DNA of 64,000 bases from an uncultured Candidatus Saccharibacteria bacterium (GTDB taxonomy: Bacteria > Patescibacteriota > Minisyncoccia > Phycocordibacterales > CAIZLB01). The translations under genes were made by a program, and so were the position numbers. Below, in pieces: positions 6,779 through 63,533 of this stretch (position 1 is its first letter; each line of letters opens with the position of its first letter). The stretch lies in NCBI GenBank assembly GCA_964520545.1, contig CAZFOD010000001.1, positions 57,969 to 121,968 on the forward strand, written 5' to 3'. The notes under the pieces were generated by a model. The model saw only the letters and a program-made list of their open reading frames with translations, did not search any database and was not told the origin of the DNA.

Positions 6779-6791
6779 CTTTGGTATAATT
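6779..6791 (+). promoter_or_regulatory. Extended -10 promoter (TGgTATAAT) for the pilus operon, inside a 375-bp AT-rich divergent intergenic region (nusA to pilB)
   Basis: TTTGGTATAATTG, with TATAAT at 6785-6790 about 25 nt upstream of the pilB ATG. Confidence 0.45.
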
Positions 6792-6813
6792 GAAACACAA
6801 ACTGTTCTCAAAA

Positions 6814-8589: not shown

Positions 8590-8605
8590 ATTTAAGTATC
8601 ATTAG

Positions 8606-9820
8606 ATGAAATTTTCATACACAGCAAAAAAAGCAAACGGAGAAGAATACACATCTGTTATGGATGTTGCTGATAAGGGTACTTTTTTTCGCGAACTTCG
8701 AAAACTTGGAGAGACACCTGTTACGTTTAACGAATCGGGGGAACATCGTGCATTCAACATAGAAGTTAATCTCGATTTCTTGAAACGTATCAAGCCGATG
8801 GACAAGATTACGTTTGCTCGAAACATAAGCGGTATGCTCGAGGCTGGGTTATCTTTATCTCGAGCTCTTGGGGTTATTGAAAAGCAAACAAAGAGTAAGA
8901 AGTTAAAAGCTATTTACAAGAATCTTAACGATAGCATCAGTGGAGGAAAAACATTTCATGAATCTTTAGCGATGGAACCATCGGTATTTTCTACCTTATT
9001 CGTATCGATGGTAAAGGCAGGGGAAGAAGGCGGTACTCTTGCTGAATCTTTGAAGCATCTTGCTTCTCAGATGGAAAAAACGTATCAGATACAAAAGAAG
9101 GTAAAGGGTGCCATGATATATCCTGCCGTTATTCTCGGTGTCATGCTCATTATCGGAGTACTAATGATGTTGTTGGTAGTTCCAAACCTTGCCAAGACCT
9201 TTAACGATCTTAAGACTCCATTACCAACGAGCACAAAGATTGTGATAGGGCTCTCGGATTTTGCTCTGAATCATTATCTAATCCTTCTTTTGATTGTTGC
9301 AGCACTAGGTGCTGGAATTTACTATGCTATGAAAACTACTCTGGGAAAGAAGGCTTTAGACTTTAGTTCACTCCGTATACCTGTAATCGGTACAATAATT
9401 AAAGAATCTAACTCTGCAAGAACAACGAGAACTCTTTCATCTTTACTTTCATCAGGTGTCGATCTTGTTACAGCGGTTCGTATTACAGGTGAAGTAATGC
9501 AAAACACGTACTACAAAGATGTTTTACAGCGTACAGAGAAGATCGTTGAGAAAGGAGAACCAATCTCTACTGTTTTTGTACAAGAAGAAAAGCTATATCC
9601 AATTTTCGTCGGTGAGATGATGAGTGTTGGAGAAGAAACTGGAAAGCTTGCATCTATGCTCATTGGTGTTGCTAGTTTCTATGAGAATGAAGTAGAACAA
9701 AAGACAAAAGATATGTCGACCATCGTTGAGCCGTTTCTCATGGTTATGATTGGAGCGGGAGTAGGATTCTTTGCGGTATCGATGATAACACCGATGTATT
9801 CGGTGATGAATAATATATAA
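8606..9820 (+). CDS. pilC: Type IV pilus inner-membrane platform protein PilC (GspF family)
   Basis: Two GspF-type repeats and multiple TM segments. Immediately downstream of pilB. Confidence 0.8.
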   Translation: MKFSYTAKKANGEEYTSVMDVADKGTFFRELRKLGETPVTFNESGEHRAFNIEVNLDFLKRIKPMDKITFARNISGMLEAGLSLSRALGVIEKQTKSKKLKAIYKNLNDSISGGKTFHESLAMEPSVFSTLFVSMVKAGEEGGTLAESLKHLASQMEKTYQIQKKVKGAMIYPAVILGVMLIIGVLMMLLVVPNLAKTFNDLKTPLPTSTKIVIGLSDFALNHYLILLLIVAALGAGIYYAMKTTLGKKALDFSSLRIPVIGTIIKESNSARTTRTLSSLLSSGVDLVTAVRITGEVMQNTYYKDVLQRTEKIVEKGEPISTVFVQEEKLYPIFVGEMMSVGEETGKLASMLIGVASFYENEVEQKTKDMSTIVEPFLMVMIGAGVGFFAVSMITPMYSVMNNI

Positions 9821-18303: not shown

Positions 18304-19674
18304 ATGGAGTATGTGAAGAAGTTGGAAGCGGCGATCATTGTTGTAGTGGTGATCGTTTGCGTCTGCAGATTCTTCACAAAGGAACGAGATGATTATGTAC
18401 TTGCCCCGTTTGAGGGTATGAACATTGCAGTTGAAGGGGTGATTGTGGGTGAACCAGAATTGCGAACAAATGGAATGAGAGTGCTTCTTGATGTTGGCAA
18501 GGTTTCTCTTTTTAAGGAAAGAACAAAACAAACTTCTCACGTAATTGAGCGAGATAATCATTTTGTTCTCGCGACTATTCAGACATCAATTGATCTTAGT
18601 TATGGAGACTTAATTGAGATTGAAGGAAAGTTTGAAAGACCGGGGATAATTGTTGGAGATGATGGTCGAAGTTTCGACTACCCTCATTACTTAGGTAAGG
18701 ACGGAATTTATTTTCTTTTAAAGGGAAATAAAGTTACACGTATATCTCGCCATCAAGGAAGTCGGGTGAAGGAATATTTATTCAGTATTAAACAGGCATT
18801 CATTGATCGCATAAATGAATCGATGCCGGAGCCGTATTCACTTTTGGCTAGTGGCCTCGTTGTGGCTGGGAAGGGAGCATTAAGTGATGATCTTGAAGAG
18901 CAGTTTAAGCGAGTTGGATTGATTCACATTGTCGTACTTTCTGGATCGAACGTCACGATTATCGCTGAGGCTATAACAAGAGCTCTGTCGTTACTGCCAA
19001 AGTATATTGCAGCAGCAGGTGGAATATTCGGAATTATTGCTTTCACTATCATTGCAGGTACAAGCGCTACTGTTGTCCGTTCAGCGATCATGTCTATCGT
19101 CGCAGTTCTAGCCAACACTTTTGGGCGCTCGACAGATGCACTGCGCGCATTGGTGATTGCAGCATGCGGTATGACCATATTGAACCCTGACATTGTCCTT
19201 TACGATCCGTCTTTTCAATTGAGTTTCACTGGCACCTTGGGATTGATATTACTTGGAGACCAGACCTCTAGATGGTTCCATTGGATACCCAAGCGAGGCG
19301 GGTTACGGGAAATAGTTTCAGCATCTGTTGCAAGTCAGATTAGTATCACTCCGATGATATTACATATGTCGGGAATGTTTTCTTTCGTCTCACTCCTCGT
19401 TAATATCTTGGTCCTTCCTCTCCTCCCTCTGACAATGCTCATGGTGTTTGTCACTGGGTGCCTGCGTTTCATCAGTTCAGTTTTATCGGTACCAACTTTA
19501 GTTGTTTCATACGCCCTGCTTGGGTATGAGCTCAAAATAGTAGATTTCTTTTCTAGGTGGCAATATGCTGCAACTACGATTCCTGCATTGTCCTGGCTTG
19601 CTGTCTTTGGAATATACGTAATGTATATATTGATATATATGGCGTATCGCATCTACAAAAAATCTCGCCAGTAG
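18304..19674 (+). CDS. comEC: ComEC/Rec2 DNA internalisation channel, N-terminal part (DUF4131 plus competence domain)
   Basis: Polytopic membrane protein with the competence-domain signature (HIVVLSGSNV). It lacks the C-terminal MBL domain, which is encoded separately downstream. Confidence 0.7.
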   Translation: MEYVKKLEAAIIVVVVIVCVCRFFTKERDDYVLAPFEGMNIAVEGVIVGEPELRTNGMRVLLDVGKVSLFKERTKQTSHVIERDNHFVLATIQTSIDLSYGDLIEIEGKFERPGIIVGDDGRSFDYPHYLGKDGIYFLLKGNKVTRISRHQGSRVKEYLFSIKQAFIDRINESMPEPYSLLASGLVVAGKGALSDDLEEQFKRVGLIHIVVLSGSNVTIIAEAITRALSLLPKYIAAAGGIFGIIAFTIIAGTSATVVRSAIMSIVAVLANTFGRSTDALRALVIAACGMTILNPDIVLYDPSFQLSFTGTLGLILLGDQTSRWFHWIPKRGGLREIVSASVASQISITPMILHMSGMFSFVSLLVNILVLPLLPLTMLMVFVTGCLRFISSVLSVPTLVVSYALLGYELKIVDFFSRWQYAATTIPALSWLAVFGIYVMYILIYMAYRIYKKSRQ

Positions 19675-26997: not shown

Positions 26998-27436
26998 CCG
27001 AGAGCTTGGAGTTGAATACATCCCATCCGAGAAGTCGAGGTAAGCACACATGAAAAGTTGGAGATTCTTAAGCGGCTTTGCAGCTGCTTTCATTGTTGGA
27101 ATCGCGGGATACGGCACCCCAAAGTTGCCAATTTCCCCGAACTCAGTCGTTCTGACTGTGGTCCCCGAGCAGCCGACGGTCCAGTTGGCAGTTCCTAGGG
27201 GAGTCCACCAACTCCTCTTTTCCACCAGTCAGATTCACCGCACTGCACGTCCTGAGTACGTCGTATGTGCAAAAGAAGCATGGTTACCCAAGGGCCCACG
27301 GCCCTTCCTCGCGGACTCGAGTGGCCCAAAGGGCCAGTTTCGGATCCACGAGGATCCTGGGAAAAGAAATCCTCGGCGGGATTTCATGAGACTGACGCCT
27401 CGCCCCTACACTGTGGGGGCGAGGCGTACTTTTTTA
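26998..27436 (+). ncRNA. Candidate structured ncRNA or long cis-regulatory leader (about 440 nt, GC-rich). Own promoter and strong intrinsic terminator at 27385-27436. Identity unknown
   Basis: Abrupt GC-rich block in an AT-rich genome. Several consecutive short GC hairpins (gggcc-CAC-ggccc, ggccc-AAA-gggcc, ggatcc-ACGA-ggatcc, gaaatcc-ucggcg-ggatttc). A 13-bp terminator stem plus T6. The in-frame reading with tyrA is Pro/Arg-rich, and the terminator lies inside it. Confidence 0.5.
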
Positions 27437-27475
27437 TCTCGGACAATTGTCTTACGTTTGTATATACTAAAGGTT

Positions 27476-28234
27476 ATGAAAATTGCAGTGATTGGAGGAA
27501 CAGGGGGAATGGGACAATCTCTGATTCGTTTTTTTAATCTGCATGGTTTGAATGCCATTGCGGTAGGAAGGAAAACCTCAATCCCAAAGCAAATTCTTGA
27601 AAGTGCAGATGTCATCGTCATCTCAGTTCCATCGAATAGTATTTCCTACGCTGTAAATCTTTTGAAACCTTTAAAGCTTTCAAAGAAACTGATAGTAAGT
27701 TTGGGTTCAGTTATGTCAAAAGATGAAAAAGCCCTAAAGCCTTTGCGCTCTAAGATCCTGCATCTTCATCAGCTTTTTGGCCCAAATACCTTTCCGTACG
27801 ATGGTCAGAAGGTTATTGTATCTGGAAATGTTTCAAATCCGTACGCGAAGAAGCTCATATTACTGTTGAAGAAGAATAAGGTTCAAGTGATGAGTCTCAC
27901 AATTAAAGCACACGACTCCTTGATGTCTAAGATTCAAGCACTTTCACAGTTTTCAATAATTTCACTCGCGAAGACACTTTCTGAGGGAGGAGGTAACAAG
28001 AAAGATCTTCTCGCAGCGTCTACCGTTACTTTTGGTATGACTGCTAGGAATATTGAGCGTATTTTGGCTCAAAAGGCCGATTTGTGGGCTTTTCTTCAGT
28101 TTGAGAACCCATTTGTACTTAAATTATTAAAAGGACATTTAAATAATGTGCAGTTAATGATTAAAACGGCTAAGAATAAGGATTATAAGAAGTTTGAACA
28201 GATTTTTAATAAAACTGCGAAGTTTTGGAAATAA
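27476..28234 (+). CDS. tyrA: Prephenate dehydrogenase (TyrA family). Start at MKIAVIGGTGGMG, not the 394-aa run-on ORF
   Basis: N-terminal Rossmann GxGxxG, the PDH family, and AT-rich codon usage like the rest of the genome. Confidence 0.7.
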   Translation: MKIAVIGGTGGMGQSLIRFFNLHGLNAIAVGRKTSIPKQILESADVIVISVPSNSISYAVNLLKPLKLSKKLIVSLGSVMSKDEKALKPLRSKILHLHQLFGPNTFPYDGQKVIVSGNVSNPYAKKLILLLKKNKVQVMSLTIKAHDSLMSKIQALSQFSIISLAKTLSEGGGNKKDLLAASTVTFGMTARNIERILAQKADLWAFLQFENPFVLKLLKGHLNNVQLMIKTAKNKDYKKFEQIFNKTAKFWK

Positions 28235-40367: not shown

Positions 40368-40712
40368 ATGAAACAACACATTATTTCATCAACACGAGAT
40401 CGACGACGAAAGCGCATTCGCGCGAAGGTTTCTGGTACAGCAGATCGACCTCGACTTTCAGTGTTCAAATCAAACACAACTATTTACGCACAGCTCATCG
40501 ACGATGATGCTGGCAAGACTTTGGCAATGGCCTCAACAAAAGGGTTGAAGGGGAACAAGACAGAGGCTGCAAAGGCAGCGGGGCTTGCTCTCGCAAAGGC
40601 AGCTCAGGGAAACAAAATCGTTGCTGTTGTATTTGATCGAGGCGGCTTTATTTACACAGGACGAGTAAAGGCTCTTGCCGAAGGCGCGCGAGAAGGCGGT
40701 CTCAAATTCTAA
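40368..40712 (+). CDS. rplR: 50S ribosomal protein L18
   Basis: L18 family. Confidence 0.93.
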
Positions 40713-40716
40713 ATAT

Positions 40717-41373
40717 ATGACTGAAGAAAACAAAACACAGGAAAATACAGAAACAACACCAGTAGCCCCAGCTCCAGCTATTGCATCAGTGCTTGCAGCT
40801 ACGGCAACAGGCCCTCAGGCTGCTCCTACTCCATTCCAGCGAAATGATCGACGTGGTGCCTCAGCAGGTGGTCCTCGACGAGATGGTGGACGTGGTGGAG
40901 AGCGACGAGGTGGTCCTCGACGTGAACCTCGCGCTAAGCCAGAGTTTGATCAGAAAATTATCGATATCCGACGAGTAACACGAGTTGCATCAGGAGGACG
41001 ACGATTTAGCTTTGCTGTATCTCTAGTTGCCGGCGACCGAAAGGGTCGTGTTGGTGTGGGTACAGGAAAGGGGGGTGATACAGCGCTCGCTGTAGACAAG
41101 GCAGCTCGAAATGCTAAGAAGAATATGATTCTTGTTAATCTTACAAAAACAGGAAGCATCGCTCATGAAATCAAGGCTAAATATTCTAGCGCGCGTGTTG
41201 AAATGATGCCTGCTCCTGGAAAGGGAATTGTAGCTGGTAGCTCAGTTCGAGATGTTATTGACCTTGCTGGTATCAAAGATATTACAGCAAAGCTTCGATC
41301 TGGAACAAAGAATAAGCTTAACAACGCACGAGCAGCTGTCATGGCTCTTGGCTTGATAAAGAAAGCGCGTTAA
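40717..41373 (+). CDS. rpsE: 30S ribosomal protein S5 with an RGG/Pro-rich N-terminal extension. Start trimmed to MTEENK
   Basis: S5 dsRBD plus C-terminal domain. The track ORF overlaps the rplR end. Confidence 0.93.
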   Translation: MTEENKTQENTETTPVAPAPAIASVLAATATGPQAAPTPFQRNDRRGASAGGPRRDGGRGGERRGGPRREPRAKPEFDQKIIDIRRVTRVASGGRRFSFAVSLVAGDRKGRVGVGTGKGGDTALAVDKAARNAKKNMILVNLTKTGSIAHEIKAKYSSARVEMMPAPGKGIVAGSSVRDVIDLAGIKDITAKLRSGTKNKLNNARAAVMALGLIKKAR

Positions 41374-41396: not shown

Positions 41397-41834
41397 ATGC
41401 AAATGCACAACCTCAAGCGAAAATATCCAACAGTTAAAACTACTCAAATAGGGCGTGGTGGCAAACGTGGTAAGACTTCAGGAAAGGGAGGCAAGGGTCA
41501 GACTGCTCGAGCCGGTGCTAAGGTTCGACCAGAGATTCGAGATACAATTAAGAGACTTCCTAAGCTTCGAGGACGAGGAAAGAACTCTTTCCTTTCTATC
41601 CAGACAAAGCCTGTTGCACTTAACCTTTCACATCTTTCAGTATTTAAGGCTGGAGAAAAAGTAACACCTAAGACTCTCGTTGATAAAGGTGTTATCACTA
41701 TATACAAAGGACGATATCCATCAGTAAAGATTCTTTCTAACGGTGAGGTTTCTACAAAGCTTGTCATTTCAGATTGCGATGTTTCTGCCAGCGCTAAGAC
41801 TAAAATCGAAGCAGCAGGCGGTAACGTAAAGTAA
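41397..41834 (+). CDS. rplO: 50S ribosomal protein L15. No rpmD (L30) gene precedes it
   Basis: L15 family (GRGGKRGKTSGKGGKG). Confidence 0.95.
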   Translation: MQMHNLKRKYPTVKTTQIGRGGKRGKTSGKGGKGQTARAGAKVRPEIRDTIKRLPKLRGRGKNSFLSIQTKPVALNLSHLSVFKAGEKVTPKTLVDKGVITIYKGRYPSVKILSNGEVSTKLVISDCDVSASAKTKIEAAGGNVK

Positions 41835-44660: not shown

Positions 44661-47471
44661 ATGGAACAACGCGGTTTAACATACGAAGGTAAGCAATTTA
44701 GTTCTCCTGAGGAAGAACTTCAATATTTACGACAAGTTGTCGCTAGTAAGGAACGCGGTCTTAGCTCTATTGGTGAAAAGAAAGAGCGTGAAGCAATAAT
44801 TGCAGAAGAACTTTCTACATACAGCAGACAGCAAATGGATAAGGTGTTGCATGAGAGCTACAAGATGCCTGCTCACGAACAGCGAGAGATTGTTCTTGAA
44901 CTTTCTCCTGAGCCTCATGATAAGAAAATAGAAGAATTGCTTTCTGTGATGTATGAGCGCGGAGTGCTGAATGCTTTAGCTGTTGCTGGTGCGTTCAATA
45001 ATCCTCATATCGATGACGACTTCCACCGATTCCTTGTTGAATATATAAAGAAGGGGTTGCCGACACCTGGGCTTAAAGAGACTTTACCCATAGCTAAGGC
45101 TTTGAAACATACTCTGTACGAAGTTTCATTACCAGAGGCAAAGAAAGATGATCAGAAGAAGGTGTTGAAGGAAATGCTTTCATCTATGGAGCAATTCTAC
45201 TCAGGTATGCTTTCTGTTTCAGGTGGTCGCGAGACTGCTGAGGAGAACCAGTTCTCGCTGGAGCTTGCAGTTGCAGAGGGTGGTGAAGAGTTTGTTTTCT
45301 ATGTATCAGTACCTGACAGTAAAGCTGGGCTTTTTGAAAAACAGTTTCTCTCCATATTCTCGAATGCAAAAATAGTTGAAAAGAAGGATAGCTACAACGT
45401 CTTTAATGTCGACGGTTTTTCTGTTGGAGCTGAAGCTGAACAGACAAAGAATCCCATATTTCCAATTAAGCAATATGAACAATTTGATTACGATCCTTTG
45501 AACGTAATATTGAATACATTGTCAAAGATTGAAAAAGATGGGGAAGGGGCATCAATACAAATCATTTTCAATCCAGTTGGTGATTACTACACAAAGCTTT
45601 ACAAAGACGCTCTTGATGAAATCAACAAAGGTACAAGTGTTAAGAAGGCTATCGATATCCGCCATAGTATATGGGGAGAGTTTACAAAAGTTGCTGGGGA
45701 AATGGCTAAGGATATCGCCAAGGAAGCAGTGACAAGTGGTAAGAAGGATGAAAAGAAAGATAAGCCAATTGATCAGATTGCTGTCGAGCAAATCACTGCG
45801 AAAATCTCAAGCCCAATAGCTGAAACCAACATCCGTATTGTCGCTTCTGCAGCCAATCGCCCTCGTGCAGAACATATTCTTTCTGATATGGAAGCGGCCT
45901 TTAATCAATTTGAGAATCCACTAGGCTCAGGATTGAAATTTAAAAGAAAGGAGGGTGGGGAGCTTAATGAGTTGTTCCATAACTTTAGTTATCGCCTGTT
46001 CGATAAGCGAAAGGCACTCCCTGTGTCTTTGCGAGAGTTGACCACCGTCATGCATTTTCCAGTTGAAAGTGTTGTAAGTTCATCTCAACTTAAACAGTCG
46101 AAAGCAGGAACAGCTTCTGCACCGATTGGATTGCCGAAGCAGGGGATTTTCCTTGGAACAAACAAGCATCGTAATACGGAAACAAAGATATATATGAGTA
46201 AGGAGGACAGATTACGTCACTTCTATGCAATTGGACAAACAGGTACAGGTAAATCCACCATGTTGAAAAACATGATTATTCAAGATATCAAAAATGGAGA
46301 GGGAATATGCTTCATTGATCCACACGGCTCCGATGTTCAGGATATCTTGGCACACATTCCTCCAGAGCGCTACGATGATGTCATATATTTTGATCCGTCT
46401 CATGTTGATCGGCCAATGGCACTCAACATGCTCGAATACAATCGAGATTTCCCTGAACAAAAGACATTCGTCGTAAACGAACTTTTTAGCATCTTCCAGA
46501 AGCTGTACGGAGGTGTGCCCGAATCTATGGGTCCAATGTTTGAACAATATTTCCGAAACGCAACAATGCTTGTGATTGAAGACCCGGATAGTGGTTGTAC
46601 ATTGCTCGATGTTTCTCGAGTAATGGCTGTTAAGAGTTTCCGTGATATGAAGATTTCGAAGTGTAAGAATCCAATAGTCGTACAGTTCTGGAAAGAGATT
46701 GCTGAAAAGGCAGGAGGGGAAGGGTCTTTGCAGAACATGGTGCCATATATCACAAGTAAGTTCGATGTGTTCCTTGCAAACGACATCATGCGACCAATCA
46801 TTGCTCAGGAGAAGTCGAGCTTTAATTTCAGAGAGATTATGGACAGCAAGAAAATCTTGCTTGTAAATCTTGCAAAAGGAAGACTGGGGGATATTAACTC
46901 ATCTCTCATTGGTCTCATTCTCGTCGGTAAAATTCTCATGGCAGCACTTTCACGTGTTGATTCATTCGGTAAAGATATGAATCCTTTCTATCTCTACATC
47001 GACGAATTTCAAAATATCACCACACCTTCCATCTCAACCATTCTTTCAGAAGCCCGAAAGTACAAACTTTCTCTAAACATTGCACATCAGTTCATCGCGC
47101 AGTTGGATGAGAATATAAAGGATGCAGTGTTTGGTAACGTTGGATCTATGGCGGTGTTTCGAGTGGGAAGTGAAGACGCTGAGTTTTTGCAGAAACAGTT
47201 TGAACCAGTATTTACCTCAAGCGATATTATGAATATCGATAACATGAATTGCTACTTGAAAATGCTTTCAGATGGAAAGCCAACTCGTCCTTTCAATATT
47301 GAATTCACATGGCCAGAGCCTGGTAACAAAAAGATTGTTGAGAAAATAAAGGAATTGTCGTATCTAAAGTTTGGACAAGACAGGGAAGAGGTTGAAGCTG
47401 CTATTTTGGAGAAGTATAAAAAAGAGCCTGTTCCCGAAAGACCTGCGAGAGAAAATCCGTTTGGTGTATAA
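44661..47471 (+). CDS. Large P-loop NTPase of the HerA/FtsK/VirB4-TraG superfamily (DUF87-like: Walker A GQTGTGKST followed by FIDPHG; Walker B LYIDEFQN) with a roughly 480-aa N-terminal domain of unknown function
   Basis: The motif order matches HerA/TraG-type ATPases. It occupies the position where infA-rpmJ-rpsM-rpsK-rpoA-rplQ usually follow map. Confidence 0.6.
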   Translation: MEQRGLTYEGKQFSSPEEELQYLRQVVASKERGLSSIGEKKEREAIIAEELSTYSRQQMDKVLHESYKMPAHEQREIVLELSPEPHDKKIEELLSVMYERGVLNALAVAGAFNNPHIDDDFHRFLVEYIKKGLPTPGLKETLPIAKALKHTLYEVSLPEAKKDDQKKVLKEMLSSMEQFYSGMLSVSGGRETAEENQFSLELAVAEGGEEFVFYVSVPDSKAGLFEKQFLSIFSNAKIVEKKDSYNVFNVDGFSVGAEAEQTKNPIFPIKQYEQFDYDPLNVILNTLSKIEKDGEGASIQIIFNPVGDYYTKLYKDALDEINKGTSVKKAIDIRHSIWGEFTKVAGEMAKDIAKEAVTSGKKDEKKDKPIDQIAVEQITAKISSPIAETNIRIVASAANRPRAEHILSDMEAAFNQFENPLGSGLKFKRKEGGELNELFHNFSYRLFDKRKALPVSLRELTTVMHFPVESVVSSSQLKQSKAGTASAPIGLPKQGIFLGTNKHRNTETKIYMSKEDRLRHFYAIGQTGTGKSTMLKNMIIQDIKNGEGICFIDPHGSDVQDILAHIPPERYDDVIYFDPSHVDRPMALNMLEYNRDFPEQKTFVVNELFSIFQKLYGGVPESMGPMFEQYFRNATMLVIEDPDSGCTLLDVSRVMAVKSFRDMKISKCKNPIVVQFWKEIAEKAGGEGSLQNMVPYITSKFDVFLANDIMRPIIAQEKSSFNFREIMDSKKILLVNLAKGRLGDINSSLIGLILVGKILMAALSRVDSFGKDMNPFYLYIDEFQNITTPSISTILSEARKYKLSLNIAHQFIAQLDENIKDAVFGNVGSMAVFRVGSEDAEFLQKQFEPVFTSSDIMNIDNMNCYLKMLSDGKPTRPFNIEFTWPEPGNKKIVEKIKELSYLKFGQDREEVEAAILEKYKKEPVPERPARENPFGV

Positions 47472-49064: not shown

Positions 49065-49481
49065 ATGTCACTACGTTCTAGATTTATCGCTGTCATAATT
49101 CTCATCATCATCCTTTTTTCGGTTGATATGATTGCCATAAAATTCTACCTTTACTGGTCATATGGATGGTTCGATAAATTTATGCATATCTTTGGGGGGT
49201 TCCTTGCTGGTAATATGGTTCTCATTGGTCGGCAGACAATGTTGCAGCGAAGGTCTAAAGCTCCAATGTCGAATTCTTCAGTCTTTTCCGTTGTGCTCTT
49301 TGGAGGACTTTTGGTGGGCATTTTGTGGGAGGCAATAGAGTTTTCATTTGGTATTTCAAAGCTTGGTCCGAATTTTGTTCCTGACACGATCATCGATCTC
49401 TCAATGGATCTCATAGGAATACTGATTGCATACATGACTTGGATAAAGATACCGCATAAAAATATAACAACACAAATATAA
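49065..49481 (+). CDS. VanZ-like family membrane protein
   Basis: DKFMHIFGGFLAG motif and 4 TM helices. Confidence 0.5.
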   Translation: MSLRSRFIAVIILIIILFSVDMIAIKFYLYWSYGWFDKFMHIFGGFLAGNMVLIGRQTMLQRRSKAPMSNSSVFSVVLFGGLLVGILWEAIEFSFGISKLGPNFVPDTIIDLSMDLIGILIAYMTWIKIPHKNITTQI

Positions 49482-50926
49482 TGATTGATAACTCTGAAGC
49501 AATACAGAAGGATGGGAAGTTGAGACTTACATTCTGCGGGGGAGTAGGTTCCGTTACCGGAGCTAATTTTCTTCTTGAAGGCCCACACCAAGGTGGTGGT
49601 GTATTTAAAATTCTTGTTGATTGCGGTATGGAACAGGGAAATCCTACTGCTGATCAGTCGAACCATGCTCCGTTTGCATACGATCCCAAAACCGCTGACG
49701 TTTTGCTCATCACTCACGCTCACATGGATCATATCGGTAGGATAGGAAAGATATTGCATGATGGTTTTGTTGGAACAATATATTCAACACCTGAGACTCG
49801 AGAGCTCTCCACTCTCATGCTTGAAGATGCATTGAAATTAGCGACACAGGAAGCTGAGCAAAAAAAGATACCTGCAATGTTTACTGAGTCGGATATAAAG
49901 AAAGCATTCTCACTTTGGAAAACAATTCCATATCACACACCAACTATTCTTTCTCCAGGCTTCGAGGTGAATTTGAAAGACGCGGGACATGTGCTCGGCT
50001 CAACAATGTACGAATTGACCTACACTGCTCCAGAAGGAATTACCGACAAGAATGGTAAACCATACAAAAGAAAGATTGTTTTCACGGGGGATTTGGGTAA
50101 TAGTCCAACGCCACTTTTGAAGGATACTGAGGCCATTACAGACGCCGACTACCTACTCATGGAAAGCGTCTACGGAGACAGAAACCATGAAGATAGGGAA
50201 TTACGCCTCCAGAAGCTAGAACAGGCCATAGAGGCCAATATAGCTCGAAATGGGACCCTTCTCATACCATGCTTCTCCCTCGAAAAGACCCAGGAATTGC
50301 TCTATGAAATCCACAAGCTCTTTGACGAAAAGAAGCTCAGCCGAAGTCCTGTATATCTCGACTCTCCACTGGCTATTAAACTCACTGCCATGTACCAGAA
50401 GTTGAGGGGGCAGTTTAACGACGATGCTAAATCTGACCTTGCTCGAGGCCACGATATTTTCAATTTCCCAGGGCTTAAGATTGTAGAGAGTGCTGATGAG
50501 TCTAAATCCATAAAGTACGCACCAGCTCCAAAGATCATTCTTGCAGGATCAGGAATGTCTAACGGTGGGCGTATTCAACACCATGAACTTAATTACCTTA
50601 GTGATCCAAATACTACACTCCTTCTCATCGGATATCAGGCCGTGGGAACTTTAGGACGCCAGATTCAAGATGGATCTAAGAAGGTTGTCATCTACGGACA
50701 TGAGGTGACAGTAAACGCAGCAATTGATCATATTGATGGATATTCATCTCATAAAGATTCAGATCACCTCGTCGAATTCGTTGAGCACTGTGCTGAAAAA
50801 GTTAGACAAGTATTTGTCGTTATGGGAGAGACAAAGTCATCTCTTTTCCTAGTACAGAGACTTCGTGACTATCTTGGGGTTAACGCTAGTCATCCTAATG
50901 AAGGCGACACGGTAACGCTTGAGTAA
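49481..50926 (+). CDS. MBL-fold beta-CASP ribonuclease (RNase J / CPSF73-like)
   Basis: MBL motifs (LVDCGM, HAHMDHIG) and beta-CASP motifs downstream. 481 aa. Confidence 0.7.
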   Translation: MIDNSEAIQKDGKLRLTFCGGVGSVTGANFLLEGPHQGGGVFKILVDCGMEQGNPTADQSNHAPFAYDPKTADVLLITHAHMDHIGRIGKILHDGFVGTIYSTPETRELSTLMLEDALKLATQEAEQKKIPAMFTESDIKKAFSLWKTIPYHTPTILSPGFEVNLKDAGHVLGSTMYELTYTAPEGITDKNGKPYKRKIVFTGDLGNSPTPLLKDTEAITDADYLLMESVYGDRNHEDRELRLQKLEQAIEANIARNGTLLIPCFSLEKTQELLYEIHKLFDEKKLSRSPVYLDSPLAIKLTAMYQKLRGQFNDDAKSDLARGHDIFNFPGLKIVESADESKSIKYAPAPKIILAGSGMSNGGRIQHHELNYLSDPNTTLLLIGYQAVGTLGRQIQDGSKKVVIYGHEVTVNAAIDHIDGYSSHKDSDHLVEFVEHCAEKVRQVFVVMGETKSSLFLVQRLRDYLGVNASHPNEGDTVTLE

Positions 50927-57587: not shown

Positions 57588-58004
57588 ATGAGAAGTCAAA
57601 ACTTTGGTGCGATGGAGTCGCCTGTAACAAATGAAACAGGTCGACGAAAAATTCTAAGAAATCAGCTCATTTCTATGGTGCGTGAATTGTCTGAGCGTGG
57701 CATTACTGATTTTAGTAAACAGAATGATCCTGGGGTTGGTACTGCGATGGAAAAGTTTCAAGAGTATGCAGAAACAGCTAATGGTATAGAGGATCCTGAA
57801 GAGAAGCTTCGAGCATTTCTCGAAGAATACATGCTTATGTTTGATGCAGGGTTGGTTGTGGACAAGGATAGATTAGCTACGCTTGATGCGGAGCTCGACT
57901 CAGACTACCTCTCAAGGGCGAGAGAAGACAACTTCATTGGTTTGGAGCAAGATGTACTGGCGTATAAAAAGGCGATAGGTGAGAAGTTGAGTCAAATAAG
58001 GTAA
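57588..58004 (+). CDS. Hypothetical protein (138 aa)
   Basis: ORF with protein-like composition. Confidence 0.4.
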   Translation: MRSQNFGAMESPVTNETGRRKILRNQLISMVRELSERGITDFSKQNDPGVGTAMEKFQEYAETANGIEDPEEKLRAFLEEYMLMFDAGLVVDKDRLATLDAELDSDYLSRAREDNFIGLEQDVLAYKKAIGEKLSQIR

Positions 58005-58045: not shown

Positions 58046-58435
58046 TCACGTGAAATTCTCTCGGGGTTTTTCCGGAGGAAGTTCAACGACAAGGTCTCGT
58101 GTTCCAGGTTCTGGGAAGGGAATTGCACCTTTTGGGTACAGCTGACACAACCCAAGTCCGTTGACAGAGAACTCCACGACACCGGTCTCTTTCATGTTGA
58201 GGTTTTCAAGTTCGACATGGAGAGGCTTGTCAGTATGTGCGTGGGAACTCCACGCGCCTTCTTCACGAATTTTGCATTCGTACCAGCCGCCACTGACTTC
58301 AATTGTGACGCACGGCCCGTTGATTTTCAGGGAACTTATTTTTGCCCATTCCATGAACTTCTTTCCTTGTGTCAGAATCACTCCACCGACGAAACGGTCG
58401 TCGTGGATCCAGGACAGATTTTTTTTATTGTGCAT
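58046..58435 (-). CDS. Hypothetical protein (129 aa)
   Basis: ORF. No confident family. Confidence 0.4.
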   Translation of the reverse strand: MHNKKNLSWIHDDRFVGGVILTQGKKFMEWAKISSLKINGPCVTIEVSGGWYECKIREEGAWSSHAHTDKPLHVELENLNMKETGVVEFSVNGLGLCQLYPKGAIPFPEPGTRDLVVELPPEKPRENFT

Positions 58436-59243: not shown

Positions 59244-60797
59244 TTACGTTTCTGTCTTGCTGACTTTTGCTTGGTCGCTGTGATTTTCTACCATAATCAA
59301 TGTTATATATGTTCCAAGATATTCAACGGTAAAGTCTGATGAGAATTTTAATGCTGGAGAGTTCAACACATCGGCAAGTTCGGTGCGTTTTGCAATGATG
59401 TAATACCTGCCAGTACTTGTGGCTGTATCAATGTTGAAAATCTTAATTTTGTTCTCTGCGCTGTAGAATTTAAAGGTTTCATGTCCATTTTCTGTCATTT
59501 GATACACGCGCCCATTTTCGTTAAGGGGATAGATTTTTAATCCGGCCTCTCGTTCTTCTTTTGCTAATTGATATTGTTCTTGCATTGATTCGAGTCTGCG
59601 TTGTCCGATACTGATTGAGGTAGCTATGGAGACTATGATCAGAACAATACTAGCCACGACAGTAAGTAGGGTCGGAATATGTTTTGCATGTTGAATCTTG
59701 AAGAAGTGATATTGAATAGTTTCAACTCCAATAGCTACTGTGATTGCAAGAAATGGGTAGGTGAATATGGAAGGGGAATCAAAAAATATTGCAGTTACGG
59801 TAAGCAGAGTAATTGTACCCAGCAGTGATGATGTAAAGATATTGTAGTGAATACGATTAATGAAGAAAGGGGGAGCCAAAACCAAAGGAGCAAATATGAT
59901 GAAGAGAATGCTCCATGGTAACCCGCCTCCAATTATCCAAGCAATAGATTTCATAACTTCTGCATTCTCAAATGTGAAGATATTGATTGGGTTGTATCTG
60001 TGCAAAATTGCACCGCCAGAAATTAATATTTGATATATGTGCCATGGAAATATTGTTAAGGCAGCAATGAGAAGACCGTGTCTTCCATTTGTGTCTCTAA
60101 AGAATATTGCAATGTTGCGAGAAAAGTCTTTGTCTTTTTTGTTTGTAATAATATCTAACGCAATGATAGGTATTGCAAGCATGCCTACGAACCCACCCAC
60201 CATGCATCCAGTCGCTATGGCAATCCAGACCCAAAATATCCAAGATCGATCCTCATCTGCGCGGATGTATGCATAATATGCAAAGAGGATACTAGCAATT
60301 ACTAGTACATTAGGATTTACCTGTCTTACACCGTCGATGAATATTCCACTTGTAAGGAGTATGAGTGATGAGATTGTTGCAATCTTTCTGCTTCTGGTTT
60401 TTTGAAGCACAATGAGCCAAACTAAAATTATGGACACAACCCCAGCAATTGCAGTCGGTAAGCGCATGGTGAATTCATTCGGCCGGAAGTCATCGTTTAT
60501 TGCGGGAGTGAATATGGCTTTGAGGGAATGGGATATTTTTTCAACAATCATAACTGACCAAAAATATATGGGAGGGTTTTCTGTCCATTGTTCGTCACTT
60601 AATTTTAAAGTAAACGGATTCTGAGACATGGTCGTGTTTCGAACAACTTGGGCGTATACAGCTTCATTTCTATCAATAAAGGGTTCATCACCAAGGTTTG
60701 TGATATACAGGGCGGATGAGAGAATCCCCATGATCAATAAGGAGATCCACGGATGTAAAAGAGTGCCCCAGCGCTTTAATTGTTGTGTACCCGTCAT
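59244..60797 (-). CDS. GT-C fold glycosyltransferase (ArnT/PMT-like, family 39/83). Start trimmed to MTGTQQLKRW
   Basis: Polytopic membrane protein. The first extracytoplasmic loop carries the DE motif (DEPFIDRNEAVYA). The track ORF has a 100-codon spurious extension. Confidence 0.6.
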   Translation of the reverse strand: MTGTQQLKRWGTLLHPWISLLIMGILSSALYITNLGDEPFIDRNEAVYAQVVRNTTMSQNPFTLKLSDEQWTENPPIYFWSVMIVEKISHSLKAIFTPAINDDFRPNEFTMRLPTAIAGVVSIILVWLIVLQKTRSRKIATISSLILLTSGIFIDGVRQVNPNVLVIASILFAYYAYIRADEDRSWIFWVWIAIATGCMVGGFVGMLAIPIIALDIITNKKDKDFSRNIAIFFRDTNGRHGLLIAALTIFPWHIYQILISGGAILHRYNPINIFTFENAEVMKSIAWIIGGGLPWSILFIIFAPLVLAPPFFINRIHYNIFTSSLLGTITLLTVTAIFFDSPSIFTYPFLAITVAIGVETIQYHFFKIQHAKHIPTLLTVVASIVLIIVSIATSISIGQRRLESMQEQYQLAKEEREAGLKIYPLNENGRVYQMTENGHETFKFYSAENKIKIFNIDTATSTGRYYIIAKRTELADVLNSPALKFSSDFTVEYLGTYITLIMVENHSDQAKVSKTET

Positions 60798-60973
60798 AGC
60801 GCAACAATAACGTAACATCATGAAGACTTTATGAGGGAAAAGCTTGTGGTAAAGATTGCACCAGGACTTGTGCAGTTCATGTGTGATGCAATGTCTGCAT
60901 ATATAGATTTGCAAAAGAAATAATACACAGGAGTAGTCTGTACATCGAAACCCCTGATGTATAATCAAGGGTA

Positions 60974-62170
60974 ATGAAATCTTCATTGCTTCTTTACTCA
61001 ATCCTTGCACTTGTTGCTTTGCTTTCGATTGCCGCCACTTCTGAAAAGGGACAGATGGCTTTGGGAAGAAGTCTTGGTCAAATGTACGCCGCACCAGCCG
61101 CACTTACACTACCTTTAAACGTACCTGCAAATGCAGTTCAGTACGGTGATGAATGGTACTGCAAACCAGGATTCTACGTAAATGGTAATTCTTGTTCTAG
61201 CATTGAAATGACCCTGGGCACCCTCACCGATGGTCAAGGATGGTTTTGTGCGAATGGATACAAGAAGATGGGTAATTCCTGCGTAGCAGTTATTCCTCCT
61301 ACAAATGCTTTTGTCCATTATGATAAATGGTTCTGCAAGGCTGGATATATGAATAGCACTGACTATCAAACCTGCGTTCAGGTTGATAGGGCGGAGGATC
61401 TTAAGACATCTTCAACGGGTAAGAAGTATTGTATTAATGGATATACACAGGTAGGTAATTCGTGTCAGAAAGTTTCGGTACCTCAAAACGCTAGAGCATA
61501 CGGAACAGGATGGATTTGCGTTGATGGCTACAAGAAAGTAGGTAATCAATGTGAAGCTATTAGTAAGCCAGCAAATTCTCTTTTGTACGGTGATGATTGG
61601 TATTGCATACATGGATACAGGGCCGAGGGGAATTCTTGTGTCCCATTCTCAGTACCTGATGGAGCGTTTGTGTATGAAAATAAAATATATTGCTACGACG
61701 AACTAAAAGAAGTAGATGGAACATGTGTTACTGAGAATATCGGTGATACCAAATCTGTAGCAGATACATCAGGGAAGGGTGATGTTGGTACTAAGGATGT
61801 TGCGGTAAACAGAGCGGGGGATGTTACTACAAAAGATGTGCCTGTAAACGGGAGGGGTGATACTTCCAGCAGAGGTGATGTTGGCACAAAGGATGTTGCG
61901 GTAAACAGAGCAGGTGATGTTGCAAGAGACTCTATCGGGGATATGTCTCAAAAGAGTGATGTTGGTGGTGGGGATGTGTCTTCAGACAAGGTATCAGACA
62001 TGTCAGTTAAAAAAGGAGATGTTGTAAAAAATGACATCGGTCAAAAAGATTTGGGAGTTTCTGATAAGTTGAGGGCGGCAACAGACGCGGTGATTAAAAA
62101 AACAAAATCAATAATTGGAGATGTAGTAGGTAAGATAAAGGATTCTACACGTTCAATCTTTAAGAGGTAA
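60974..62170 (+). CDS. Secreted repeat protein: signal peptide, seven tandem roughly 38-aa modules each with a W-x-C-x-x-G-Y...G-N-x-C cysteine pair, then a GDV(G/A)xKDV low-complexity tail
   Basis: Repeats are visible in the translation (e.g. YGDEWYCKPGFYVNGNSC, GQGWFCANGYKKMGNSC, YGTGWICVDGYKKVGNQC, YGDDWYCIHGYRAEGNSC). Confidence 0.7.
   Translation: MKSSLLLYSILALVALLSIAATSEKGQMALGRSLGQMYAAPAALTLPLNVPANAVQYGDEWYCKPGFYVNGNSCSSIEMTLGTLTDGQGWFCANGYKKMGNSCVAVIPPTNAFVHYDKWFCKAGYMNSTDYQTCVQVDRAEDLKTSSTGKKYCINGYTQVGNSCQKVSVPQNARAYGTGWICVDGYKKVGNQCEAISKPANSLLYGDDWYCIHGYRAEGNSCVPFSVPDGAFVYENKIYCYDELKEVDGTCVTENIGDTKSVADTSGKGDVGTKDVAVNRAGDVTTKDVPVNGRGDTSSRGDVGTKDVAVNRAGDVARDSIGDMSQKSDVGGGDVSSDKVSDMSVKKGDVVKNDIGQKDLGVSDKLRAATDAVIKKTKSIIGDVVGKIKDSTRSIFKR
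61777..61917 (+). repeat. Two roughly 48-nt near-identical direct repeats inside the GDV tail coding region (ggtgatgttggYacWaaggatgttgcggtaaacagagcRggKgatgtt)
   Basis: Copies at about 61777-61824 and 61870-61917, differing at 4 positions. Confidence 0.6.
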
Positions 62171-62217
62171 AGCGGTTTGATTCGGCATGCTCTTATTAAG
62201 TTAGTAATTTAAACAAT

Positions 62218-62613
62218 ATGCAAAACAAAAATATAGTTATAGGCGTTCTCGCCCTCATCATTGCTCTTGGTGTTGGATATGCTATCGGAGCATCAATAAA
62301 TCGTTATGATAATGATGACTACGGTAGGGGCGGTATGCATATGATGCCTAATGGAAGTATGATGAATAACAGCATGGAGGGAATGATGATGGACATGAAC
62401 GCAGCTTTGATTGGAAAAACAGGAGACTCATTTGATAGAGCGTTCCTTGCAGAGATGATCGTTCATCACCAGGGTGCGGTAGAGATGGCAGGGCTCGCTC
62501 TTAAAAGCGCAAAACATCAAGAAATTAAAGATTTAGCAACTGCAATTATTGCTGCGCAAAACAAAGAAATTGCGGATATGAAAGCATGGGAAAAGACTTG
62601 GTACGGAAAGTAA
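62218..62613 (+). CDS. DUF305-family protein (ferritin-like four-helix metal-binding fold), membrane-anchored
   Basis: HHQGAVEMA motif. N-terminal TM. Confidence 0.6.
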   Translation: MQNKNIVIGVLALIIALGVGYAIGASINRYDNDDYGRGGMHMMPNGSMMNNSMEGMMMDMNAALIGKTGDSFDRAFLAEMIVHHQGAVEMAGLALKSAKHQEIKDLATAIIAAQNKEIADMKAWEKTWYGK

Positions 62614-62668: not shown

Positions 62669-62676
62669 TTGATGTG

Positions 62677-63079
62677 TGGAGATGCCGGGAATCGAACCCG
62701 GGTGCAGGTGAGTTTCTTAGATGAATCTACGCGACGTAGAGGGTCTTTGCGGCAGAGCCGTTTTAAAGTTCGTTACTAGAAGACAGACAAAACGTAACGA
62801 ACCCGAGCTTTATGGTTTCGGCGGACGATTAAAGCAAATCGTCAACCTATTCTGAATATATACCACCGGCAGTTCTGCTTCAGAAAGACAGAACTGTGAT
62901 GTCGCTAGGCGTGGAGCGTTAGGCTCGGGCTGTTGCGAAGGCGAAGTCCTTCACCGCAAAAAACGGAGAAGCTACCGCTTGTCGTGCTTTAGCACTTAAG
63001 GGTTCCAGCAGTTTTACTAGTTACTGGAGCTAGATCGCGCACAAAGAAGAAATGACACTTGTCGAAGCCAATCATCCCC
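62677..63079 (-). ncRNA. ssrA: tmRNA (transfer-messenger RNA), about 403 nt, immediately downstream of smpB
   Basis: 5' GGGGAUGAUUGGCUUCGACA (tmRNA 5' consensus). Acceptor stem GGGGAUG/CAUCUCC with the G3-U70 alanine identity pair. 3' T-arm GGGUUCGAUUCCCGG, then discriminator A. An internal tag-like frame ends at UAA. Confidence 0.85.
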
Positions 63080-63086
63080 ATGTGTG

Positions 63087-63533
63087 TTATTGATTTTTCA
63101 ATGTTCTCCGAATCTCGCGGTCGGTATCACGCTTTTTGATAGATTCACGCTTATCGAACCGCTTCTTACCTTTAGCAATGCCAATTTCAATCTTGACCTT
63201 GCCCTTATTGTTGTACAGTGAAATTGGCACTATTGTCAATCCCTTACCGCTTTCAATATCAGAGAGTTCCTGTATCTCTTTTTTCTTAAGAAGGAGCCGT
63301 CTGTTTCGAGCTGGTTCATAGCCCTTTGGTGTATTGTTCTGTTGAAATGGGGGAATGGTAGCACCCACAAGATATGCTTCACCTCCACGCACTACAATAT
63401 ACGCTCCTTCGAGTGAACCGTGCCCTGTCTTTATTGCCTTTACCTCAAACCCAAAAAGCTCGATGCCAGCTTCGAAGGCTTTCTCGACATCGTAGTTGAA
63501 CCTTACCTTTCTGTTTTGGACAAAGGTTGTCAT
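63087..63533 (-). CDS. smpB: SsrA-binding protein SmpB
   Basis: SmpB family (GIELFGFEVKAIK...GTEIKSL-like region, C-terminal basic tail). Confidence 0.9.
   Translation of the reverse strand: MTTFVQNRKVRFNYDVEKAFEAGIELFGFEVKAIKTGHGSLEGAYIVVRGGEAYLVGATIPPFQQNNTPKGYEPARNRRLLLKKKEIQELSDIESGKGLTIVPISLYNNKGKVKIEIGIAKGKKRFDKRESIKKRDTDREIRRTLKNQ

Follow-up and report, generated by a model that had tools for sequence, protein, structure and literature searches.

What kind of protein is encoded by a gene in which fourteen cysteines fall in regular pairs, and what could this protein do for its cell? The gene, called the repeat gene here and its product the repeat protein, lies on the + strand of a 64,000-nucleotide (nt) stretch of DNA from an uncultured Candidatus Saccharibacteria bacterium (GenBank assembly GCA_964520545.1, contig CAZFOD010000001.1, positions 57,969 to 121,968), which we call the window; coordinates are those of the window unless stated otherwise. 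Our results indicate that the gene is real and that, as judged from sequence comparison, it adds a new member to the known and widespread PF12946 repeat family. As to its role, we lean modestly towards a Sec-exported envelope or surface protein that acts as a passive tether, spacer or adhesin. Its seven single-disulfide modules would make up a semi-rigid, extended rod, and after this would come a flexible linker of variable length and a cationic helix. Here the disulfides, the rod geometry and the tether or adhesin role are the parts that we infer. The gene had been singled out in a first-pass annotation, made by a model from the letters of the DNA and a list of open reading frames (ORFs), and its claims are taken up below where our results bear on them.

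The repeat gene is real and under purifying selection

60974..62170, + strand: coding sequence of the repeat protein, 398 amino acids (aa) plus stop, as given in the ORF list

The ORF occupies exactly the position reported by the first-pass annotation. A protein identical over 398 aa is called on 5 contigs of public run assemblies, and an exhaustive HMMER search recovered two full-length orthologues, P0001 (380 aa, 76-79% identity) and P0002 (381 aa, 45% identity), as well as P0125, which is a C-terminal fragment. The query, P0001 and P0002 come from different samples and sequencing runs, and each of them has 14 cysteines in the same seven position-specific units; comparison of copy number among relatives, which the first-pass annotation had proposed, therefore gives seven units in each of the three full-length orthologues. 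Even the irregularities recur, as the odd cysteine spacing of 13 in unit 3 and the degenerate units 4 and 7 are found in all three proteins. When the single query protein was used in a word-indexed protein search, P0001 was the only match, while scans of contigs from a genome collection and a metagenome collection yielded one distant relative each (32% identity), these being a metagenome-assembled genome of the Alphaproteobacteria (L003) and a JGI contig (L005). No paralogue of the modules or of the tail was found elsewhere in the window.

Comparison with the orthologue of the closest relative (locus L001) gave a ratio of nonsynonymous to synonymous substitutions (dN/dS) of 0.18 overall, which speaks for purifying selection on the + strand frame. 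The modules had the lowest ratio, 0.13; for the C-terminal helix it was 0.21 and for the tail 0.35. The dS of the repeat gene is close to that of the neighbouring genes; its dN is 0.121 vs 0.016 for the ZIP gene and 0.010 for the His_Phos_1 gene, about 10 times that of these flanking genes, and this fits an exposed protein. The high dN and the variable length of the tail, described below, make the repeat protein a candidate surface-exposed protein of this organism.

Could the repeats be an assembly artefact, or the ORF non-coding? The sole ground for this is that repeats can in principle be mis-assembled, and we give the idea next to no chance. It is excluded by the identical protein on 5 contigs, by the orthologues from other sequencing runs that keep the same seven units, by the dN/dS of 0.18 and by the lack of a tandem repeat at the DNA level. 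The check for an artefact was thus negative, and the gene is real.

Seven units with one cysteine pair each

61118..61204, + strand: module 1, aa 49-77 (VPANAVQYGDEWYCKPGFYVNGNSC); Cys63/Cys74; PF12946 15.5 bits; strands at 54-57, 60-63, 67-70 and 73-76
61205..61291, + strand: module 2, aa 78-106; Cys92/Cys103; degenerate PxNA lead-in; PF12946 15.1 bits; modelled with AlphaFold
61292..61387, + strand: module 3, aa 107-138; Cys121/Cys134; 32 aa long, with the cysteines 13 apart, as in all three orthologues; weak cEGF match
61388..61474, + strand: module 4, aa 139-167; Cys153/Cys164; without the PxNA lead-in; Tyr in place of Trp
61475..61561, + strand: module 5, aa 168-196; Cys182/Cys193; nearest to the family consensus; PF12946 20.6 bits alone and 27.3 bits when framed; two-unit model with a confidence of 94
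61562..61648, + strand: module 6, aa 197-225; Cys211/Cys222; aligned by phmmer to the MSP1 chain 1n1i
61649..61735, + strand: module 7, aa 226-254; Cys240/Cys251; G-Y and G-N positions degenerate

All 14 cysteines of the repeat protein fall in the seven pairs listed, as the first-pass annotation had claimed in describing seven two-cysteine units. That annotation had made the units about 38 aa long; the actual period from pair to pair is 29, 29, 32, 29, 29 and 29 aa. The cysteine spacing that it called fixed is 11 in six units and 13 in unit 3, and the Trp that it called conserved is found in 5 of the 7 units, with units 4 and 7 lacking Trp and unit 7 lacking the G-Y as well. The core motif itself is beyond chance: the expression [WY]-x-C-x2-G-[YF]-x3-G-N-x-C matches 6 times, against a mean of 0.011 and a maximum of 1 in 5000 shuffles of the protein.

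Within the query the units are 19-52% identical to one another. Between the query and P0002, units at matching positions are 50% identical on average and units at other positions 30%, suggesting that the array is old and position-specific and has seen no recent amplification. Moreover, Tandem Repeats Finder detected no tandem DNA array in 60500-62600. Since the module repeats are too diverged in their DNA, slippage inside the cysteine-module array can be rejected.

The array matches PF12946 and its units align to the EGF1 domain of MSP1

In a Pfam scan of the whole protein, PF12946 (EGF_MSP1_1) was the only match above the curated cut-off, with 34.7 bits and an expectation value (E) of 1.8e-08 over four stretches, the gathering cut-off being 27 bits. 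The view of the first-pass annotation, which did not recognise the repeat as a named domain, is thereby overturned; as the same annotation had held that a match to a known repeat family would leave only annotation to be done, the locus becomes an annotation task by its own measure. If unit 5 is made to begin at the final Cys of unit 4, its score is 27.3 bits, and the alignment takes in positions 2-37 of the 37 in the profile. Membership in PF12946 is borderline for the single unit and clear for the array. Among NCBIfam models none matches the module, with no match for the query and matches to models of partner domains only for its relatives.

We then compared a bacterial two-unit profile (alignment A3, 38 sequences) with the PDB. 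The MSP1-19 chain 1n1i was the sole match below E 0.01, with E 0.0021. The alignment spans C...VPENA...WRCLLGFKEVGGKC, so the similarity covers the whole unit and goes beyond the cysteine hairpin. The two cysteines of the unit align to the last two of the MSP1 EGF1 stretch in 1n1i, which we take to be C5 and C6 in EGF numbering, and the Trp of the W-x-C motif is matched by a Trp in the 1n1i chain, presumably in the C4 position. The unit has no equivalents of C1-C4; opposite the first Cys of the model stands a Cys of the preceding unit.

How far, then, are these units EGF domains? A canonical EGF domain has six cysteines and three disulfides (C1-C3, C2-C4 and C5-C6); here there are exactly two cysteines per 29-aa unit. 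The C-terminal signature EGF_2 of PROSITE reads C-x-C-x2-[GP]-[FYW]-x4-8-C, and the units read W-x-C-x2-G-[YF]-x6-C, with Trp, Tyr or Ile at the first Cys of the signature. The calcium-binding EGF model PF12662 (cEGF) scores only 9-14 bits vs a cut-off of 26.6 (E 0.04), and the Pfam scan gave no match of the PF00008 type. We would describe the module as an EGF-like pair of hairpins, stripped down to what is probably a single disulfide; it satisfies the statistical threshold of Pfam and falls outside the classical definition of an EGF domain.

A module-like stretch was also seen in a phage protein: residues 40-66 of PDB chain 8jov_G (phage GP4 gp81) read LWRCDDEFNVGADECAEVAVPYGAALY, where the two cysteines are likewise 11 apart and a VP follows; the match has a non-significant E of 0.16.

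Predicted structure of the modules

A full-length AlphaFold2 model was built with 111 family sequences. Over residues 50-250 its predicted local distance difference test score (pLDDT) is about 83-96, and most units have four short strands, that is, two beta-hairpins; the atypical units 3 and 4 have fewer or shorter strands. Modelling of two units, a check suggested in the first-pass annotation, gave the same picture: the AlphaFold model of residues 168-228 has a mean pLDDT of 94.1 and a predicted template-modelling score of 0.67, with four strands, or two beta-hairpins, per unit. In the models, strand 2 ends with the first cysteine of a unit and strand 4 contains the second. From these positions and the analogy with C5-C6 of EGF, each unit probably holds a single disulfide.

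Foldseek was used to compare the two-unit model with 350,542 PDB chains. MSP1-19 structures came first, with 1n1i at the top, and their matches have root-mean-square deviations (rmsd) of 2.8-3.5 A over 37-38 columns at 27-38% identity; examples are 8dfi (probability 0.99, 3.3 A over 38 columns) and 1b9w (0.94, 2.8 A over 37 columns). Further MSP1-19 matches were 6xqw and 9fp9, and these were followed by Pvs25, the cysteine-rich domain of EphA2, uromodulin EGFs and TNFR. With the full-length model, tandem EGF arrays (NELL2, Pvs25/Pfs25/Pfs28 and uromodulin) ranked on top, at E 0.003-0.01 and with TM-scores of only ~0.1-0.2.

A Foldseek search against viral structures gave nothing significant. 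Its entry M1I1Q1 of the BFVD database, a viral protein, aligned to the two-unit model with a TM-score of 0.61, an rmsd of 2.8 A over 55 columns, a probability of 0.99 and an E of 0.09. Separately, one bacterial relative of the module matches the Pfam family Chlorovi_GP_rpt (Chlorovirus glycoprotein repeat) at 4e-09. The module may have a link to the surface repeats of giant viruses.

The module is common in bacteria, mostly behind predicted export or anchor segments

An exhaustive HMMER search over 1.84 billion representatives (of 50%-identity clusters) found at least 1150 relatives of the module at E<=1e-3, with 504 at <=1e-10 and 23 at <=1e-30. The best 150 relatives have 3-18 copies of the motif, with the C-terminal fragment as the only exception, and their unit periods are mostly 31 (306 cases), 33 (155) and 29 (95). 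Of 866 units, 786 have their two cysteines 11 apart. Trp is conserved in 95% of the units, Gly in 94% and Tyr or Phe in 100%, this last being fixed by the search expression; a P-x-N-A lead-in is common, and 74% of the relatives' cysteines fall in the paired motif. The family consensus reads [VI]-P-x-N-A-x5-G-x2-W-x-C-x2-G-[YF]-x3-G-x2-C. PF12946 matches 90 of 111 sampled relatives at E<=1e-3 (best 1.9e-20), and precomputed Pfam labels list PF12946 as well.

What are these relatives called? A word-indexed profile search returned at least 12 proteins, none with an informative name: the sources say 'uncharacterized' or name a partner domain. Among the 111 relatives the partner domains were PG_binding_1 (12 proteins), Trypsin_2/HtrA-like (3) and MORN with TerB (2), with single cases of Peptidase_C14, EAL, PEGA and SHOCT; most relatives have none. 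It is a modest but real wider point that bacteria commonly carry a module whose Pfam name comes from a malaria vaccine antigen. For the repeat protein, the annotation that we consider correct is an exported repeat protein of the EGF_MSP1_1-like type. As a minimal EGF-like unit of 29 residues with one disulfide, confidently predicted by AlphaFold, the module would also be useful as a small scaffold and as a handle on the origins of the EGF fold.

The placement of membrane segments in 149 relatives was judged with a crude hydropathy scan, which sorted them as follows.

N-terminal hydrophobic segment only: 64 relatives
Internal transmembrane segment before a C-terminal array: 32 relatives
Signal peptide plus a transmembrane segment after the array: 3 relatives
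No segment at the stringent threshold: 42 relatives, possibly including truncated predictions

A hydrophobic export or anchor segment was thus present in 99 of the 149, and in 96 all such segments lie upstream of the array. This placement puts the array consistently on the extracytoplasmic side. The first-pass annotation had suggested a small, disulfide-stabilised extracellular domain repeated as a stalk or adhesin. That the protein carries an array of small extracytoplasmic modules, probably stabilised by disulfides, is supported by the N-terminal hydrophobic helix of the query, the hairpin model with its pLDDT of ~90 and the export segments of the relatives.

The partner domains raise another explanation, namely that the modules are cell-wall-binding repeats, comparable to choline-binding or CROP hairpin repeats, that hold peptidoglycan or a wall glycan in pockets formed by Trp and Tyr/Phe between the hairpins, the repeat protein being a wall-anchored scaffold. 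PG_binding_1 in 12 of the 111 relatives points that way, as do several relatives with HtrA-like proteases or SleB-like regions, and the full-length model also retrieves the CROPs of TcdA/TcdB and the choline-binding protein CbpJ. However, these CROP and CbpJ matches have a probability of only 0.08-0.14 and rank under the EGF arrays, and neither appears among the 50 matches listed for the two-unit model. Moreover, Pfam finds no CW_binding match in the query or its relatives, and most relatives lack a peptidoglycan-related partner domain. As for the aromatic residues, the aligned positions of MSP1 EGF1 are W (or Cys) and F/Y, and in EGF domains the residues at these positions generally pack against the disulfide. 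We consider wall binding by the modules unlikely.

A predicted export signal or anchor, a variable tail and a predicted C-terminal helix

60974..61039, + strand: N-terminal hydrophobic segment, aa 1-22 (MKSSLLLYSILALVALLSIAAT), a predicted signal peptide or signal anchor, from the Kyte-Doolittle profile and AlphaFold
61040..61117, + strand: linker, aa 23-48, a short helix at aa 24-35 followed by low confidence (AlphaFold pLDDT 52-70)
61736..62056, + strand: tail rich in GD[VMT] and KDV, aa 255-361, predicted to be disordered from AlphaFold and composition
61778..61825, + strand: direct DNA repeat, copy 1, encoding GDVGTKDVAVNRAGDV; 44 of 48 nt identical to copy 2
61874..61921, + strand: direct DNA repeat, copy 2, encoding GDVGTKDVAVNRAGDV; starts 96 nt after copy 1 and is not in tandem with it
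62057..62167, + strand: predicted amphipathic helix at the C-terminus, cationic with a net charge of +6, aa 362-398, from AlphaFold and the hydrophobic moment

The N-terminus of the repeat protein consists of an n-region, MK, and a 17-residue hydrophobic core with a Kyte-Doolittle mean of 2.24 (aa 3-21), and AlphaFold predicts a helix at aa 2-22. Read by eye, cleavage could occur between SIA and A or between IAA and T, and SIAATSEKG is kept in three orthologues.

Behind the array, the tail contains 19 D, 17 G, 17 V and 11 K, has a net charge of -3 and is 17% Ser+Thr; its pLDDT is <50 over aa 259-359, and no Pfam family matches it. GD[VMT] occurs 9 times in 108 aa, against 0.85 +/- 0.88 in shuffled sequence (0 of 2000 shuffles reach 9), in agreement with the GDV-rich tail of the first-pass annotation. 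The two near-identical 48-nt repeats reported there are also present; they encode the same peptide, and their 44/48 identity suggests a recent duplication or conversion. The tail is the only region with a variable copy number: there are three 16-aa GDV..KDV.VN..GDV units in the query and two in P0001, and the tails of the two proteins differ by 13 aa and, further downstream, by another 5 aa. The same annotation had called the repeats prone to slippage; this agrees with the number of tail units, which varies, but not with the cysteine array, which is old and without tandem DNA.

Finally, the C-terminal helix (aa 362-397 in the model) has a pLDDT of about 80-87, a hydrophobic stripe and a hydrophobic moment of 1.2-1.9, and it is kept in P0001, P0002 and the fragment P0125.

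The neighbours of the repeat gene vary

59244..60731, - strand: PMT_2/PMT GT-C glycosyltransferase (Pfam), 495 aa as called in L006
60732..60973, no strand: divergent intergenic region, 242 nt between the start of the GT-C gene and the repeat gene, holding TGATGTATAAT
62218..62613, + strand: DUF305 protein (Pfam), 47 nt downstream of the repeat gene
62674-63079, - strand: tmRNA (Rfam RF00023, 86.5 bits), past the DUF305 gene and adjoining smpB
63087-63533, - strand: smpB, adjoining the tmRNA

The first-pass annotation described the neighbours correctly in that a GT-C gene lies upstream on the opposite strand and a DUF305 gene is adjacent; it had the repeat gene following the DUF305 gene, which in fact it precedes. 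The same annotation saw in these genes a cell-surface cluster. The ZIP and His_Phos_1 genes of L001, together with two small ORFs, share 84-98% identity with their counterparts in the window. In L001 His_Phos_1 is the immediate neighbour of the repeat gene; neither there nor in L002 does the corresponding position carry the GT-C gene, and tblastn gave no match to it in either. Genes for CsoR and HMBD/MauE stand between the repeat gene and the DUF305 gene in L001; they are also present in L002 and absent from the window. The neighbours of P0002, on a short contig, are unrelated genes. The proposal of a cell-surface cluster thus finds no support, and neither such a cluster nor a link to a metal operon is conserved. 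The variable region comprises 59244-62217 of the window and 1668-5022 of L001, with the GT-C gene present in the window and in L006, and the locus appears to be a site of variation flanked by conserved genes.

Two explanations of the repeat protein rest on these neighbours. According to the first, it is the substrate or partner of the adjacent PMT-type GT-C enzyme in a cell-surface glycoprotein cluster; a cell-surface cluster was also what the first-pass annotation proposed. The PMT_2/PMT gene is divergently transcribed 242 nt away, and the tail, 17% Ser+Thr and predicted to be disordered, resembles the disordered Ser/Thr-rich segments that are the usual targets of O-mannosylation. Yet in the closest relative the flanking genes are 97-98% identical and the GT-C gene is missing, as just described, and the short contig of P0002 shows no GT-C gene either. 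We regard this explanation as quite improbable.

According to the second, the repeat protein is an extracytoplasmic copper or zinc buffer that uses its 14 cysteines as ligands and works with DUF305, CsoR, HMBD and ZIP proteins. In favour of this, the DUF305 gene starts 47 nt downstream with no terminator-like site in between, and in L001 the repeat gene precedes the CsoR, HMBD/MauE and DUF305 genes on the same strand, with ZIP three genes upstream. A promoter-like site (10 of 12 positions) lies upstream of csoR in L001, after the repeat gene, so a separate promoter probably serves the metal genes. The context of P0002 is without metal genes, and no metal-related partner domain is among the families listed for the 111 relatives. 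The conserved W/G/[YF]/G pattern, like the confidently modelled hairpins, is in keeping with a structural disulfide. A metal buffer seems to us very unlikely.

In the divergent intergenic region, TGATGTATAAT (60953-60973) is an extended -10-like element that ends 8 nt before the ATG at 60974, a candidate promoter as read from the sequence. Its position hints at a transcript with a very short leader, or a leaderless one.

Some observations concern the rest of the window, which carries EF-G, SecY, NusA, RecJ, PilB/PilC, ComEC and a VirD4-like gene and is chromosomal. The small ORFs at 57588-58004 (+, 138 aa) and 58046-58435 (-, 129 aa) have no Pfam match; their L001 counterparts are 91% and 84% identical (dN/dS 0.07 and 0.18), and both are therefore probably real genes. 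Identified by eye, an S5-like ORF (40675-41373) is followed after 23 nt by an L15-like ORF (41397-41834) and then by SecY, with no L30 in between; at its N-terminus the S5-like ORF is extended by ~70 aa in which R and G abound. The missing L30 would suit a Patescibacteria/CPR origin without proving it, and the type IV pilus, ComEC and VirD4-like genes hint the same way. The gene at 49481-50926 (+) encodes a beta-CASP/MBL ribonuclease-like protein, to which the best-matching NCBIfam model, 'type VII CRISPR-associated Cas14', gives 369 bits vs a cut-off of 800 and aCPSF1 gives 274 bits; it is probably a housekeeping beta-CASP RNase and not a CRISPR component. The regions 6790-9820, 18304-19674 and 44661-47471 encode a PilB/GspE-like ATPase, a PilC/GspF-like platform protein, a ComEC-like protein and a 936-aa protein that is weakly VirD4/TraD-like. 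After EF-G, the gene at 27050-28234 (+) bears PDH_C as its precomputed label and is followed by a gene for chorismate mutase (CM_2), a pair that agrees less easily with a Patescibacteria/CPR origin. The PDH_C-labelled protein and the SecY of the window are each the sole member of their 90%-identity cluster, which suggests a lineage without close sequenced relatives in that collection.

A model for the repeat protein

The reading that we prefer can be put together as follows. The Sec machinery would export the repeat protein by means of its N-terminal signal peptide or anchor. Each 29-residue module would then fold into two short beta-hairpins closed by one disulfide, the equivalent of C5-C6, and the modules, stacked head to tail, would form an extended and semi-rigid rod. 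Behind the rod there would be a flexible, fast-evolving and length-variable linker rich in GDV/KDV, and the C-terminal cationic amphipathic helix could attach to an anionic surface or oligomerise. The rod would give reach and binding surface, and the protein would most likely have a passive role in the cell envelope, as a tether, a spacer or an adhesin. The wall-binding, GT-C-substrate and metal-binding explanations are each less likely than this one.

Several points weigh against it. The N-terminus may be either a Sec signal peptide or an uncleaved anchor. The E-values of the two-unit Foldseek matches, 0.14-0.9, are not significant, which we attribute to the tiny size of the domain (about 30 residues). 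Cut at PxNA, the single units other than the framed unit 5 score 13.6-20.6 bits with PF12946, under the cut-off; strong units of relatives score 16.5-23.7 bits, and the MSP1 EGF1 stretch of 1n1i scores 74. Literature searches found no paper or experiment on a bacterial PF12946 or MSP1-like EGF module, and these data hold no pointer to a ligand of the repeat protein.

A bolder version is conceivable, although we doubt it. The bacterial VPxNA-WxCxxG[YF]xxxGxxC repeat could be true kin of the apicomplexan MSP1 EGF1, as its source or through horizontal transfer, and could define a large class of extracytoplasmic single-disulfide 'mini-EGF' modules; here the rod of seven units, together with the cationic helix and the tail of variable length, would be an adhesin for a host or partner cell under diversifying pressure.

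Comparison with known systems

Among known structures, MSP1-19 EGF1 (1n1i, 1b9w and 8dfi) shares with the module the pattern C-x3-VPxNA-...-W-x-C-x2-G-[FY]-x3-G-x2-C and the final C-C spacing of 11. The aligned stretch of 1n1i has four cysteines, whereas each bacterial unit has two. MSP1-19 is GPI (glycosylphosphatidylinositol)-anchored and consists of two EGF domains; the repeat protein departs from this two-EGF arrangement, with 7 tandem units in an exported bacterial protein.

Tandem EGF arrays such as Pvs25/Pfs25/Pfs28, EGF1-6 of NELL2 and uromodulin are, like the predicted rod, elongated strings of small, disulfide-stapled, two-hairpin extracellular modules. In contrast to them, the units of the query lack the C1-C3 and C2-C4 disulfides and show no detected calcium-binding consensus, which in such EGF domains is an N-terminal D-x-[DN]-E. 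The CW_binding_1 and CROP repeats are likewise short, aromatic-rich, tandem beta-hairpin repeats of exported bacterial proteins. They have no cysteine or disulfide, whereas the query has cysteine pairs, and their period is different, choline-binding and CROP repeats having one of about 20 aa.

Finally, the nearest published functional precedent, likened here by description, is CglD of Myxococcus xanthus, a surface adhesin for which eleven disulfides are reported in the repeating antiparallel, single-disulfide EGF-like domains of its cysteine-rich stalk (bioRxiv 10.1101/2023.10.19.562135). CglD is a lipoprotein with VWA/MIDAS and calcium-binding domains, features that the repeat protein does not have; what the two proteins would have in common is a bacterial EGF-like stalk.

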